This document shows positions 1 through 47,987 of a stretch of DNA of 57,526 nt, one piece after another (position 1 is the stretch's first letter; the number at the start of each line of letters is the position of its first letter). This DNA comes from Patescibacteria group bacterium (GTDB lineage: Bacteria; Patescibacteriota; Doudnabacteria; UBA920; VMFF01), in the NCBI GenBank assembly GCA_038065615.1, contig JBBTQQ010000002.1:1-57526 (forward strand), in the 5' to 3' direction. The position numbers were made by a program, and so were the translations under genes. The notes beneath the pieces are model-generated. The model ran no database searches. It saw nothing but the letters and a program-made list of their open reading frames with translations, and had not been told where the DNA came from.

Positions 1-67
1 CTGTCGGACTTGAACCGACCACCTGCGGTTTACGATACCGCTGCTCTACCAGATGAGCTAAGCCGGC
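1..67 (-). tRNA. tRNA-Thr (anticodon CGU), 3' end cut by window edge
   Basis: Reverse complement reads GCCGGCTTAGCTCATCTGGTAGAGCAGCGGTATCGTAAACCGCAGGTGGTCGGTTCAAGTCCGACAG. It has a D arm GCTC/GAGC, anticodon stem GCGGT/ACCGC with loop AT-CGT-AA, and T arm GTCGG-TTCAAGT-CCGAC. The backbone is nearly identical to the complete tRNA-Thr at 54521-54596. Confidence 0.85.
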
Positions 68-16201: not shown

Positions 16202-16230
16202 TTGCTGATAAAATGTGTTTTCTGTAGAAT
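16202..16230 (+). promoter_or_regulatory. Candidate sigma70-like promoter of the GC-2 cassette
   Basis: TTGCTG (16202-16207), 17-nt spacer, TAGAAT (16225-16230), 26 nt before the ATG at 16257. Confidence 0.4.
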
Positions 16231-16256
16231 ACGAGCACACCTGAATCGGAGGAACC

Positions 16257-16511
16257 ATGGCTGGAGGAAGCATGTCTGTGGAAACGGTGGAAACGAAGCC
16301 AGCGCACATCGAGACTGTGATCGGCGTGGTCGCACTCGTGATTGCAGCGCTCGTTGCAGCTTCGATCCTCGCGATCAACATCAACGCTCATGACGCAATC
16401 AAGGAGGTCGGCTTCTGGACCGGGATGGCCTATCGGGTCATTACCTTCACGTCGTGGCTTCTGGCTGCGGCACTCGCCGGGATCGGCTCACAGCTCGTTC
16501 GTGACGCCTGA
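16257..16511 (+). CDS. 84-aa two-TM small membrane protein, compositionally foreign (GC-2)
   Basis: GGAGG (16248-16252) lies 4 nt before the ATG. Two hydrophobic spans: IETVIGVVALVIAALVAASILAINI and VITFTSWLLAAALAGIGSQLV. Lines 16261-16440 count 55/60/58% G+C. It is the only plus-strand gene in the 547-17616 minus-strand run. No family recognised. Confidence 0.55.
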   Translation: MAGGSMSVETVETKPAHIETVIGVVALVIAALVAASILAININAHDAIKEVGFWTGMAYRVITFTSWLLAAALAGIGSQLVRDA

Positions 16512-16543
16512 GATCAGCAACAGCCCTCCGCAAGAAAGCAAAA

Positions 16544-16604
16544 CCCCGATGACAAAGATGATCATCGGGGTAAGCGTCAATCAAAGCAGTTGCTGCTTTT
16601 TTTT
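16544..16604 (+). terminator. Two hairpins after the GC-2 ORF; the second has a T-run
   Basis: CCCCGATGA/TCATCGGGG (16544-16570), then AGCAG-TTG-CTGCT followed by seven T (16585-16604). The second hairpin abuts the convergent dac gene stop. Confidence 0.55.
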
Positions 16605-17616
16605 AATTCCAGCTGAAATTATCAAACACGTATTTAATCACTTCGAGTGTACTGTCGTTTCTGTCTGGTGTTCCTAAAACAATCGCAATAACTTTATTAC
16701 CGTTATCATTCACTGCTTCAACAATCATGTTGCCCTGAGCTTTTGCTGTATACCCTGTTTTTATGGATTTAATATTTTTGTATTCGAAAACTAAATCATT
16801 ACTGTTTTTAATCTTGTATATTTTACCTAACAACGATTCGAAAGTATAACTTGCTTGCTGACTCCAGATCTGATCATACGGTAATATATCAATCCCATAA
16901 TTAACTAACTTCCTTAAATCCTTTGCTGTTGAATAGTTTGCTTCTGAATCAAAACCAACTGGATTACTGAAATGCGTGTTTTCCATCCCGAGCTCTTTTG
17001 CTTTTGCATTCATCTTTGAAACAAAATCAGCTTTGTTTGGAAAATGGTTGGCAAGAGTTAATGCAGCATCATTTGCGGAACCAAGAAGCATTGCTTTAAG
17101 TAAGTCTTCAGGATAAACTTTGTCTCCTGGAACTAAACCAAGATACGGACTAACTTTCAAAGCGTCCTCTTGAGTTATGGTTATGCTCTCTTTAAAGTTT
17201 GGATCTTCAGAAGCAACGATTGCTGTCATGAATTTTGTTAAAGAAGCAATTGCTACTTGAGCATCTATGTTTTTCTGATACAAAATTGTTTGAACAGCAG
17301 GATCATACACCAAGAAAGCTTTTGCTTTAACATCAGGGACTACCGAGTAATTAGTTTGTTTAACAGCCTGTTCATTATTAACATCGCCTCCCCTTGGCGG
17401 AGTAGCAATAGGTCCTTGAAGTGGGGTAGAAAAATTAAAATCCTGACTTGTATCAGGAGATGTTACGTTAATTGTAGCACCTAAAACCTTTCCAGTCTTT
17501 GCTTGTGGTATTTGCCAATTGAAAGCAAACAACAGCAATGCAACTGCAGGGATTAGGATTGATAGATTTTGCGCTATTTTCCTTGGCACTTTTGTTTTTG
17601 TTTTAAATCCTTGCAA
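16603..17616 (-). CDS. D-alanyl-D-alanine carboxypeptidase (peptidase S11, PBP5-like)
   Basis: SxxK (ASLTKFM), SxN (GSANDAA) and KTG (KTGYT) motifs in the canonical order, plus an N-terminal anchor. Confidence 0.85.
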   Translation of the reverse strand: MQGFKTKTKVPRKIAQNLSILIPAVALLLFAFNWQIPQAKTGKVLGATINVTSPDTSQDFNFSTPLQGPIATPPRGGDVNNEQAVKQTNYSVVPDVKAKAFLVYDPAVQTILYQKNIDAQVAIASLTKFMTAIVASEDPNFKESITITQEDALKVSPYLGLVPGDKVYPEDLLKAMLLGSANDAALTLANHFPNKADFVSKMNAKAKELGMENTHFSNPVGFDSEANYSTAKDLRKLVNYGIDILPYDQIWSQQASYTFESLLGKIYKIKNSNDLVFEYKNIKSIKTGYTAKAQGNMIVEAVNDNGNKVIAIVLGTPDRNDSTLEVIKYVFDNFSWN

Positions 17617-43014: not shown

Positions 43015-43200
43015 GAGGTTTTTCCTTTATGACTTATATCTGAATAGACCGACCGGTATTCCTGTTAAAAAATAAATCTCGGTTATTAACCGAGTGAAAT
43101 TAGCACTTAAGATGATCTTGAAATGCTTTTCCTCGGTAGGCTTACTGCTCTCACAGATTATGCCCTAAAAGGGCGCCGACTTTCTTTGGAATATTCTATT
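43015..43200 (-). promoter_or_regulatory. Structured rplJ 5' leader with attenuator-like hairpin (possible L10 leader)
   Basis: About 190-nt untranslated leader. On the minus strand it ends in CTCGGTTAATAACCGAG followed by ATTTATTTTTT (plus 43066-43094), about 50 nt before the rplJ ATG. Assignment to the L10 leader class is by position and analogy only. Confidence 0.4.
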
Positions 43201-43207
43201 CACCAAC

Positions 43208-46443: not shown

Positions 46444-46797
46444 CTAAACCGCAAAGAATAACGCAATAGCAGCCAAACCAAGCCCAATATCCCTGAAAGT
46501 TATATCCAACACCCCTAAACCAGGAGCCAAAGCAATGACAAACAACAAAACAGCGGCTACCAGAGAAAAGAACTTAACCTTAACATTACCTAAAAATAAA
46601 AGACCAAGAGCAATATCAAGCAAAGCATGGGCAAAGAGCGCGTTCTCCCTTGTAAAACCAAAATTAGAAACCCACATAGGAACAAAACCAACCCAATCAT
46701 TTGGATTAATCAAAGACCTAACCCCAGCATAGATAAAGACAAAGGCTAGAGATATTCTTAACAACAAGACGGTTTTTTGAACCTGTTCTGCTCTCAT
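46444..46797 (-). CDS. Small DoxX-like membrane protein
   Basis: 117 aa, 4 hydrophobic spans. The N-terminal LLLRISLAFVFIYAGVRSL resembles the DoxX family. Confidence 0.45.
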   Translation of the reverse strand: MRAEQVQKTVLLLRISLAFVFIYAGVRSLINPNDWVGFVPMWVSNFGFTRENALFAHALLDIALGLLFLGNVKVKFFSLVAAVLLFVIALAPGLGVLDITFRDIGLGLAAIALFFAV

Positions 46798-46815
46798 CCC
46801 CTAAATTATACACCA

Positions 46816-46844
46816 TTGCAGACTCATTTTCGCAGTGCTACGAT
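46816..46844 (+). promoter_or_regulatory. Candidate promoter of the GC-4 cassette
   Basis: TTGCAG (46816-46821), 17 nt, TACGAT (46839-46844). The roughly 75-nt leader that follows contains the small hairpins CCTGG-AAAGC-CCAGG and CCACC-CAGGC-GGTGG. Confidence 0.3.
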
Positions 46845-46918
46845 GAACTTACCTGGAAAGCCCAGGAGACTTCCACCCAGGCGGTGGGGCAACATCCTTT
46901 TGAAAGGGAGAGTCTACT

Positions 46919-47281
46919 ATGGGGCCGAAGATCGTCGCACGCCAGTATGTCTGCATTAGAGCAATCGAAGCGCTGCTCCTGCAGATCACTCAGAGGTTCA
47001 CTCCCGGGGTAGCTTACAGGGTCTCGTCTATGGACATTCCCAGCTCAGCTAGCTCAACAGCGGAAAGGATCAAAGGAAAGGTCCTGAAGTTCTCCACTGT
47101 GAAGGACACTAACGGGAAGTTTGAGGTAAGCTTCTCCTGCACACTGCAGCTGTACAGGATACTGGGACTCTGGAACCCAGCGTCCTTCAAGCTTTCCCTG
47201 AATGGCGAGGACTATGAAGGGAGTTTTGGTGCTTCAAGCACCTACAACATCCTGGTCCAGGACGTGATCAAGAAGAGCTAG
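46919..47281 (+). CDS. 120-aa protein of unknown function, compositionally foreign (GC-4)
   Basis: It is the only 60-aa-or-longer ORF the track lists over the body of this patch (just a short upstream ORF, 46777-46959, clips its 5' end). GGGAGAG lies 7 nt before the ATG. Line 46921-46980 counts 58% G+C. Codon usage differs from the host: Lys 8 AAG to 1 AAA; Arg 4 AGG, 1 AGA, 1 CGC. It is plus-strand inside the 41539-47772 minus-strand run. Confidence 0.55.
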   Translation: MGPKIVARQYVCIRAIEALLLQITQRFTPGVAYRVSSMDIPSSASSTAERIKGKVLKFSTVKDTNGKFEVSFSCTLQLYRILGLWNPASFKLSLNGEDYEGSFGASSTYNILVQDVIKKS

Positions 47282-47311
47282 CACCAAGGAGGCACAACTG
47301 AAAAAAAGCAA

Positions 47312-47341
47312 AAGCCAATGGCAAAGCTTGACCATTGGCTT
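47312..47341. other. Hairpin 1 of a triple-hairpin cluster
   Basis: AAGCCAATGG / CCATTGGCTT, 10-bp stem, 10-nt loop. The T-run is on the minus-strand side only. Confidence 0.6.
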
Positions 47342-47343
47342 GA

Positions 47344-47376
47344 GACGTCAACAGAAATGTTGATGTCTTTTGATTT
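47344..47376 (+). terminator. Likely terminator of the GC-4 ORF
   Basis: GACGTCAACA-GAAA-TGTTGATGTC (one G-U pair), followed by TTTTGATTT. Confidence 0.6.
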
Positions 47377-47391
47377 CTGAGGGATATATAA

Positions 47392-47415
47392 AACCTCCTG
47401 GCATATCAGGAGGTT
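47392..47415 (-). terminator. Likely terminator of hup
   Basis: AACCTCCTG-GCATAT-CAGGAGGTT, followed on the minus strand by TTATATAT. It is the first hairpin downstream of the hup stop. Confidence 0.55.
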
Positions 47416-47487
47416 GTATATATTTCTTTAAACACAGAAAACAGTTTGCACCCGTTTGCTATGTTCTTTTGTTTCGCTAGAAGCTAG

Positions 47488-47772
47488 TTAAAGAATTGAA
47501 TCCTTAGCTGCTTTTGCGACTCTAAACTTAACTACTGTTTTGGCAGGAATTGAGATTTGGGCGCCGGTTGCAGGATTTCGGCCCATGCGAGCTGCACGAT
47601 CCTTTTTCTGCAATTTACCCAAGCCAGGGATGGTGAATTCACCATTTCTCTTAGCTTCGCTGTATGCGGTGCTTACGAGAATTTCTAGCATTTCTGCCAC
47701 TTCTTTACGGCTCTTGCCTGTCTTTTCTGCTAATGCTTGTAGCAGTTGAGACTTGTTCATTGGTTTTGCCAT
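47488..47772 (-). CDS. hup: HU family DNA-binding protein
   Basis: MNKSQLLQALAEKTGKSRKEVAEMLE...GRNPATGAQISIPAKTVVKFRVAKAAKD is the canonical HU/IHF fold signature. Confidence 0.9.
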   Translation of the reverse strand: MAKPMNKSQLLQALAEKTGKSRKEVAEMLEILVSTAYSEAKRNGEFTIPGLGKLQKKDRAARMGRNPATGAQISIPAKTVVKFRVAKAAKDSIL

Positions 47773-47987
47773 AAGTATTTGTTAATTATCTTTCTTGAGA
47801 TAGTATAGCACAGGGATTAAAAAAAGCTAGTAAAATCAAGGGTTTTGTCAATGGTCTAAGATACAGGGGCAAAAAAGGCTTAAACTACACCCTAATATAT
47901 CTGTTAAAAAATCAATACTTTTTAATCATTGCTCCCCTTGTTTTCCAAGAGTATACTTCAATATGGTGTGCAATTAAACGCAAAAAT

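Follow-up and report, generated by a model that had tools for sequence, protein, structure and literature searches.

The window analysed here, a stretch of 57,526 nucleotides from a Patescibacteria group bacterium (contig JBBTQQ010000002.1), carries at 46919-47281 of its plus strand, between a DoxX-like gene and hup, an open reading frame (ORF) of 120 codons whose composition differs strongly from that of the genes around it. We think it rather probable that this ORF is a resident, independently transcribed small gene with a hypervariable allelic cassette, which is traded between strains by recombination and in which a high guanine-plus-cytosine (GC) content of the third codon positions (GC3) is maintained. 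Many old allele types would coexist in the clade; we compared eight of them, and a ninth is present in raw contigs. An earlier note, made from the letters of the window alone, had taken the ORF for a recent acquisition from a compositionally distinct donor, a claim contradicted by its presence at the same site in every relative and by a GC3 kept while synonymous divergence (dS) between alleles reached saturation. The parts of the gene are:

46919-47281, plus strand: protein-coding ORF of 120 residues, intact, with the translation quoted earlier
46919-46974, plus strand: conserved start of the ORF (up to codon ~18), which behaves as left flank
46975-47278, plus strand: hypervariable cassette, codons ~19-120, delimited by diversity and by a drop in identity

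The evidence for such a cassette lies in the comparison of the gene with its surroundings. In pairwise alignments of the loci, identity is near 100% from the promoter across the leader to codon ~18, falls abruptly to 35-60% over a run of ~300-330 nt, and is back to ~100% from the stop codon and the AAGGAGG motif that follows it. For instance, the loci L009 and L013 have left and right flanks 98.2% and 98.8% identical, with an ORF identical at 57% in DNA and 42% in protein (and 2 differences in its first 55 nt), and L002 and L008 have flanks at 98.0% and 96.7%, with an ORF at 55% in DNA and 44% in protein. Nucleotide diversity (pi), computed in sliding windows over eight loci, is 0.35-0.48 in the ORF body (46980-47280), 0.02-0.15 in the flanking genes, 0.09 in the leader, and 0.2-0.36 in unconstrained spacers. 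Non-synonymous divergence (dN) is 0-0.14 in codons 2-19 and 0.25-0.78 in the rest of the ORF, and the ratio dN/dS (omega) of the cassette is 0.18-0.74. Neighbouring proteins are 87-100% identical between strains (87-95% for the DoxX-like protein of distinct strains, 99-100% for HU), and the small protein is 39-66% identical in most allele pairs and 83-85% inside one subgroup. The same boundaries were found in the runs X16 and X19, where a 2.5-kb contig matches 46862-46962 and 47314-47795 and has the 351 nt of 46963-47313 swapped for 354 unlike letters, i.e., the ninth allele.

Strains that share an allele (L002, L007, and L003 on one side; L004, L005, L010, L011, and L012 on the other) have 0 differences in the ORF and 5-15 in the flanks, and the cassette is therefore not hypermutating. 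The marks of a mosaic locus are present: a divergent core in near-identical flanks, incongruence between the similarity of alleles and that of flanks, and alleles that are stable. The simplest reading is that old, stable alleles have passed from strain to strain, with homologous recombination acting through the conserved sequence on either side. Crossovers would lie, on the left, within the conserved stretch from the promoter across the leader to codon ~18 and, on the right, within the conserved 3' hairpin block. In some strains the particular allele was likely gained recently by recombination from a related strain, an exchange within the family as opposed to an import from another kind of organism.

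The alleles were collected in several ways. Three homologues of the 120-residue protein turned up among 5.8 billion proteins, two further homologues and one spurious repeat protein were returned when a profile was run against 1.84 billion cluster representatives, and more loci were added by a genome scan and a DNA-pattern scan, which gave the total of eight distinct alleles compared. The spurious protein (P0007, 704 residues) had a profile expect value (E) of 6e-5 that came from five copies of a KFSTYxDE...W motif, and we judged it a repeat-inflated chance match, given its helical-repeat look, a probable transglutaminase-like C-terminus, and a different gene context. We also rejected the database models of 131-139 residues that start at a GTG within the leader, because their frame is broken in the window (by a 1-nt deletion) and in L006. 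In the entries P0002, P0004, P0005, and P0006 and in the loci L007 and L013, such a GTG start in the 5' untranslated region (UTR; MGQHPFEEDKS...) adds 11-12 residues, and these starts in public gene calls are probably mis-annotated. A literature search returned nothing on this gene, nor on GC-recoded small genes in the Candidate Phyla Radiation (CPR).

Coding status and base composition

As judged from its sequence, 46919-47281 is a genuine protein-coding gene, and on this point the earlier note was right. The listing of ORFs has no other frame of at least 60 residues over its body except 46777-46959 on the same strand, which clips its 5' end, and the longest antisense ORF has 58 residues. GC content is periodic along the codon (0.46/0.42/0.70 at positions 1/2/3). 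The frame is intact in all eight alleles, at 120-128 codons, and their indels are in frame. The column of the ATG/GTG start is kept across alleles, with a Shine-Dalgarno sequence ~8 nt upstream. Between the closer alleles, the differences at codon positions 1/2/3 number 10/9/46, 12/8/45, and 11/11/32, and dN/dS among close alleles is 0.08-0.15. The locus thus presents the generic signs of coding, namely substitutions dominated by third positions, dN/dS below 1, in-frame indels, and a conserved start with its Shine-Dalgarno sequence.

The composition of the gene stands far from that of its genome. The whole window has 37.1% GC, the region 46851-47281 has 53.1%, the ORF itself 52.6%, and 300-nt windows across the patch between the DoxX-like gene and hup 52-54%; the ~58% that the earlier note gave for the patch is reached just in the best 100-nt window. 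GC3 is 0.70 in the ORF vs a mean of 0.300 in the host, as estimated from 43 ORFs with at least 150 residues (standard deviation 0.033, maximum 0.364), which puts the gene ~12 standard deviations away and bears out the claim of codon usage alien to the host. The codon counts also agree with those given earlier: AAG for 8 of 9 lysines, CTG for 8 of 11 leucines, TTC for 4 of 6 phenylalanines, TCC for 4 of 15 serines, and, for arginine, AGG four times and AGA and CGC once each. All five glutamines are encoded by CAG and the only tRNA-Gln gene of the window has the anticodon UUG; this is therefore not the usual translational optimisation.

Such a composition would commonly be read as the trace of a foreign origin, yet GC3 is 0.69-0.75 in all eight alleles, with 0.26-0.45 in their flanking genes, and dS between pairs of alleles ranges from ~1 to >2, i.e., at or close to saturation. 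Because mutation pressure alone would have moved each lineage toward 0.30, GC3 must be actively maintained. Instead of decaying toward the host, the composition of the ORF is atypical yet stationary, holding its range at dS of 1-2, and its GC-rich third positions appear as a maintained equilibrium and not as un-ameliorated foreign DNA.

The gene is not alone in this respect. A scan of the ORFs of the window found two real genes only with GC3 near 0.70, 46919-47281 and the following one, which lies in an island that the earlier note called GC-2 and took for non-coding:

16257-16511, plus strand: conserved gene of 84 residues in the GC-rich island 16203-16610 (58% GC)

Its GC3 is 0.70 (0.70-0.75 in three genomes) and its product, which looks like a two-helix membrane protein, is 69-92% identical in metagenome-assembled genomes (MAGs) of Doudnabacteria/Patescibacteria, an ordinary divergence without hypervariability. 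The gene has its own promoter-like site (TTGCTG-17-TAGAAT), a GGAGGAA Shine-Dalgarno sequence, two 3' hairpins as terminators, and a fixed synteny between a glycosyltransferase-4 gene and a peptidase S11 gene. Since it shares the GC3 of the 120-codon gene and is not hypervariable, high GC3 is not a by-product of hypervariability or of local recombination. For the same reason, GC-biased gene conversion at a recombination hotspot is weakened as the cause of GC3. Nor did we adopt selection for mRNA structure within the ORF, as the codon permutations given below are inconsistent between alleles. Our best guess is that GC3 is set by gene-specific selection on the mRNA (nuclease resistance) or on the rate of translation via rare codons, which the high GC3 would then probably reflect.

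Leader, terminators, and surroundings of the gene

The gene is bordered on both sides by conserved non-coding sequence, whose elements, with the two neighbouring genes, are:

46444-46797, minus strand: DoxX-like gene, left neighbour of the 120-residue ORF
46816-46821, plus strand: -35-like hexamer TTGCAG, read from the sequence
46836-46844, plus strand: extended -10 element TGc-TACGAT (TGnTAYNAT in relatives) of the predicted promoter
46851-46918, plus strand: predicted 5' UTR of 68 nt, with a putative start near 46851
46852-46866, plus strand: 5'-terminal leader hairpin (46852-46856/46862-46866), one nt from the predicted 5' end
46873-46887, plus strand: second leader hairpin (46873-46877/46883-46887), in the predicted 5' UTR
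46895-46909, plus strand: hairpin of the consensus fold in which UCCUUU (46895-46900) pairs with the Shine-Dalgarno region AAGGGA (46904-46909)
47286-47292, plus strand: AAGGAGG motif just past the stop codon, with an AGGAGG core invariant in eight alleles
47312-47341, minus strand: hairpin 1, with its T-run on this strand (terminator scan)
47342-47369, plus strand: hairpin 2, which likely terminates the small gene, with a T-run after it on this strand (terminator scan)
47392-47415, both strands: hairpin 3, terminator-like in either direction and invariant
47488-47772, minus strand: hup, right neighbour, convergent with the 120-residue ORF

The promoter-like arrangement pointed out earlier, TTGCAG-17-TACGAT, is present at 46816-46844: TACGAT lies at 46839-46844, 17 nt after TTGCAG, and is preceded by TG at 46836-46837. 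Across nine loci the TTG of the -35 element is invariant, as are the TG, the TA, and the final AT of the -10 element, whose middle positions vary, and the 17-nt spacer is free to change (pi 0.23 in a window of 60 columns). We infer from this pattern of conservation that the promoter is functional. A simple scan with the sigma-70 consensus did not call it, with 7 of 12 consensus positions matched. The leader that follows is nearly invariant in the eight alleles (pi 0.09 vs 0.23 in the promoter spacer), its substitutions lie in the loops of hairpins or affect one side of a stem and keep the pair via G-U, and a structure in the leader is plausible. The leader motif is unique to this locus in the metagenome contig collection. 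Transcription would start from an extended -10 promoter and end at hairpins 2 and 3, and the 68-nt 5' UTR would have a hairpin at its 5' end and a Shine-Dalgarno sequence that is partly occluded.

The three 3' hairpins described in the earlier note are present within 47312-47415, and in folding energy the block far exceeds its shuffles (z -7.9 on the plus and -7.7 on the minus strand); the terminator scan finds 4 sites where 1.8 ± 1.4 are expected. The hairpins have the stem and the T-run of intrinsic terminators. In hairpin 1 compensatory changes affect 7 of 11 pairs, a number reached by 0 of 500 shuffles. The variation of hairpin 2 is one-sided through G-U, which allows pairing solely on the plus-strand RNA. 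Hairpin 3 is common to hup and to the small gene, which converge on it, and lies within a longer, imperfect 37-nt inverted repeat (47364-47443). Its CCUCCU arm is complementary to the AAGGAGG motif, which has this form in seven of eight alleles (TAGGAGG in L006) and no conserved start codon behind it; an alternative pairing or ribosome binding are possible roles for the motif.

Among strains with the same ORF allele, the 3' side of hairpin 2 (arm and tail) comes in two versions, TGTTGGCGTTTTAAAATTC and TGTTGATGTCTTTTGTTTTTC, as seen on comparing L004 (~880-900) with L005, L010, and L011 (about 47355-47375 in the window). The latter version, which is that of the window, makes the better terminator. 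Two tails with one ORF allele imply that the terminator block is itself mosaic.

The neighbours of the ORF encode MscS-like, DoxX-like, HU, and IMPDH proteins, and the order is the same in all loci with a homologue: MscS-like, DoxX-like (minus), the ORF (plus), hup (minus), and IMPDH (plus). The ORF is thus a plus-strand gene between minus-strand genes, as stated before. Since the locus L006 comes from a MAG named Candidatus Doudnabacteria bacterium Gr01-1014_77, we assign the host of the gene to Candidatus Doudnabacteria.

A few other features of the surroundings deserve mention. In L006 (4508-4729 of VMFF01000017.1) the hup ORF has 73 residues instead of 94 and its C-terminal third is replaced by unrelated sequence, pointing to a deletion or a frameshift at the 3' end of hup or to an error of assembly there. 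The spacer between hup and the IMPDH gene (47865-47960), which served as our local yardstick of unconstrained divergence, has pi up to 0.36 between relatives and differs in length among them. The sole non-tRNA Rfam family detected within the window is the ribosomal protein L10 leader (RF00557) at 43062-43207 on the minus strand, with 50 bits vs a gathering score of 44. A third GC-rich island at 68-470 (57% GC) adjoins a truncated tRNA (1-67, minus strand). Rfam gives no match to it at E up to 1, its GC shows no periodicity by codon, its minus-strand ORF of 97 residues has no homologue and is absent from the protein database, and it has a strong 13-bp hairpin at 77-113 and a folding z of just -2.1/-2.6; it may be an undescribed RNA or the remnant of an element. 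Names of Doudnabacteria MAGs at NCBI bear numbers from ~41 to 52, which we take to be GC percentages, and with the 37% of the window its lineage may be unusually AT-rich within its phylum.

Predicted fold, rival explanations, and significance

The AlphaFold2 model of the 120-residue protein, built from an alignment of six sequences, has a predicted local distance difference test (pLDDT) of 83.1 and a predicted template-modelling score (pTM) of 0.78. It consists of a helix at residues 4-26 followed by six antiparallel beta strands, with one helix on the sheet. No sequence or profile match was found in Pfam, NCBIfam, PADLOC, PHROGs, or PDB (at E up to 1, or at chance level only). Foldseek comparison of this model with PDB gave a best E of 0.05 and template-modelling (TM) scores of at most 0.41, none of them significant, and nothing significant in BFVD. 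The top 50 of these non-significant matches are mostly NTF2-like or cystatin-like: VirB8 domains, NTF2, the CaMKII hub, and SnoaL-type enzymes. What is kept between alleles is the helix at the N-terminus, along with core-like residues (Y10, R14, E17, F27, Y33, R34, G53, K54, F58, F72, C74, W85, P87, and Y109, among others), and what varies, including the indels, is carried by loops and strand surfaces. A scaffold that is conserved and a surface that varies, at a locus whose alleles are traded, are the mark of a specificity determinant, and the protein could, with low confidence, be one that is under diversifying, frequency-dependent selection. That it is a small soluble alpha+beta binding module with a recognition- or immunity-type role is a tentative suggestion, to which we give a low probability; one candidate would be an orphan immunity or inhibitor-type protein directed against a variable toxin or a phage factor. 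Imm-NTF2 immunity families of polymorphic toxin systems in Pfam are members of the NTF2-like fold. The model resembles the NTF2-like/cystatin-like group (VirB8-like, Imm-NTF2) in its predicted helix on a curved antiparallel sheet and in that its best matches, weak as they are, belong to this fold group, and the size and solubility of the protein suit small immunity or inhibitor proteins. It differs from them in the absence of any profile match and in structural matches that are not significant (E at least 0.05, TM at most 0.47). Also, NTF2 typically has three helices where the modelled protein has one long helix, and there is no toxin gene nearby.

Could the island be something else than a resident coding gene? 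GC islands in AT-rich genomes are usually structured RNAs, and a non-coding RNA gene with a fortuitous ORF would fit the intergenic position of this GC-rich island, the conservation of the flanking non-coding blocks, and the folding of the 621-nt region, which on either strand is more stable than that of its shuffles (z ~-5). This is most improbable: the low z comes from the terminator block and not from the ORF, a search of Rfam over 46800-47300 gave nothing, whether cut at the gathering score or relaxed to E up to 10, with the sole chance-level matches on the terminator hairpins, ARAGORN found no transfer-messenger RNA, and no part of the locus is less conserved than the ORF body; the GC of the ORF is strongly periodic by codon, its substitutions are concentrated at third positions, its indels are in frame, and its frame is intact in eight very divergent alleles. 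We give no more credit to a recent import by horizontal transfer from a donor of distinct composition, be it eukaryote-like, virus-like, or a GC-rich bacterium, or to a chimera or contaminant. The ~12 standard deviations in GC3, the plus-strand position inside a minus-strand run, and the lack of a homologue outside the clade all speak for an import. Yet the ORF sits between the DoxX-like gene and hup in every locus recovered, with the same composition, synonymous sites are saturated between alleles and GC3 is unchanged, and the second gene of matching composition is equally resident. As to assembly errors, the full 681-nt stretch is present in runs of several independent studies, and contigs of 34 kb (X3), 5.5 kb (X5), and 1.1 kb (X1) span both junctions, the first two with zero mismatches. 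There is no mobility signature among the neighbouring genes and no flanking repeat above 12 nt. A viral origin was rejected, as no relative was found by sequence or fold in IMG/VR viral contigs, PHROGs, or BFVD. The earlier note had opposed to import an ordinary conserved gene, with the same composition and strong purifying selection in related AT-rich genomes; the composition and the selection are found there, but the gene is a hypervariable cassette and not an ordinary one. It appears as resident and lineage-restricted in a groundwater clade of Candidatus Doudnabacteria (CPR/Patescibacteria).

The variability itself could have more trivial or more elaborate origins than allele exchange under selection. 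An ordinary fast-evolving orphan, with weak constraint, occasional recombination, and diversity without special role or balancing or diversifying selection, would account for dN/dS below 1 everywhere, for the confinement of the gene to a narrow clade, as with young orphans, and for pairs in which dS of the ORF is close to that of IMPDH (0.56 vs 0.54 for L004-L007; 1.36 vs 1.12 for the window and L004). We consider it unlikely, because drift cannot yield 43-45% DNA divergence and saturated dS between strains whose flanks are 1-3% apart, identical alleles are static while their flanks gain changes, and core residues, fold, and reading frame are kept in every allele. Programmed diversification within each genome, by a diversity-generating retroelement (DGR), by gene conversion from silent cassettes in the style of pilE/pilS or vlsE, or by local hypermutation, would explain the sharp boundaries of the variable segment and its end at the stop codon with conserved hairpins next to it, and DGRs are known to abound in CPR genomes. 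It is nevertheless very unlikely. Alleles differ at 40-65% of positions and by indels, not only at adenine-templated sites, and third positions change most, so that the variation is not DGR-like; strains with the same allele have no change in the ORF. No paralogue, silent copy, or template-like repeat of the cassette exists in the 57.5-kb window or the fetched loci (no search aimed at a reverse transcriptase was made), and there is no paralogue or silent copy among the predicted proteins of two very large databases.

Several results weigh against the reading that we favour, that of a resident gene whose cassette is exchanged, selected for specificity, and held at high GC3. Permuting synonymous codons in the eight alleles gives z from +0.1 to -3.8, hence no consistent extra mRNA structure, and three metatranscriptomes from a study that holds the organism, searched at the level of contigs, contain no matching contig. 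Within the cassette dN/dS is below 1, which does not speak for positive selection, and much of its pattern could arise from recombination under relaxed constraint. The alleles compared were drawn from different samples and studies, and the search for donor copies covers ~57 kb of the genome. No cognate partner was found among the neighbours, which are conserved genes of housekeeping type, in a search limited to the locus, and the Foldseek matches are weak (TM at most 0.47 across two models). Finally, of the structured leader claimed in the earlier note, the two GC hairpins are present and conserved, but the leader has no compensatory changes and its minimum free energy is no better than that of shuffles (z -0.3/-0.9).

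A polymorphic, mosaic locus exchanged by recombination is of a known kind, whose diversity is upheld by frequency-dependent selection and of which the Staphylococcus agr specificity groups, the pherotype loci Bacillus comQXP and Streptococcus comCD, the target-recognition domains of type I hsdS, and the centre of the flagellin gene fliC are examples. The small gene resembles these loci in having: 1) conserved flanks around a sharply bounded divergent core; 2) incongruence between alleles and flanks; 3) old, stable alleles that do not hypermutate; and 4) a composition unlike the genome. It differs in being a single, small, predicted soluble protein, in having no co-varying partner (receptor, toxin, or modification enzyme) adjoining it, and in that its composition is shifted upward in GC, a shift common to a gene that does not vary. 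With DGR targets it shares a sharply bounded variable segment that runs to the 3' end of the gene with conserved hairpins next to it, and its host phylum is known for such elements, but its changes are not restricted to adenines, comprise indels, and are mostly synonymous ones at third positions, the window and loci contain no template repeat, and the alleles are static within strains. With acquired islets of atypical composition it shares a codon usage strongly atypical for the host, but every relative has it at this site, no mobility signature accompanies it, and its composition persists at saturated dS. What is new is the gene family, its occurrence in CPR bacteria, and a stable compositional anomaly common to a second gene.

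A wider hypothesis, which we regard as quite unlikely, is that the lineage keeps a class of small monocistronic genes recoded to GC-ending codons, whose composition is held by selection on the mRNA and of which one member is a hypervariable specificity determinant traded by recombination. If true, this class has at least two members in 57 kb (46919-47281 and 16257-16511), the selection on the mRNA could be, e.g., for resistance to AU-specific ribonucleases or for a dependence on rare tRNAs that acts as a translational switch, and the hypervariable member would serve in self/non-self, host, or phage recognition in episymbiotic bacteria. Atypical codon composition is routinely taken as evidence of recent horizontal transfer, which the two resident genes described here contradict: gene-specific composition must, in their case, be set by a force other than ancestry, and identifying this force, be it mRNA stability, tRNA-dependent control, or biased conversion, would bear on how the output of compositional detectors of horizontal gene transfer is read. 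CPR/Patescibacteria are abundant, mostly uncultured, and half of their genes are without known function. Near-identical strains that carry wholly different versions of a small protein point to an arms race or a recognition system, and the candidate opponents, whether hosts, phages, or each other, belong to the least understood biology of these episymbionts.

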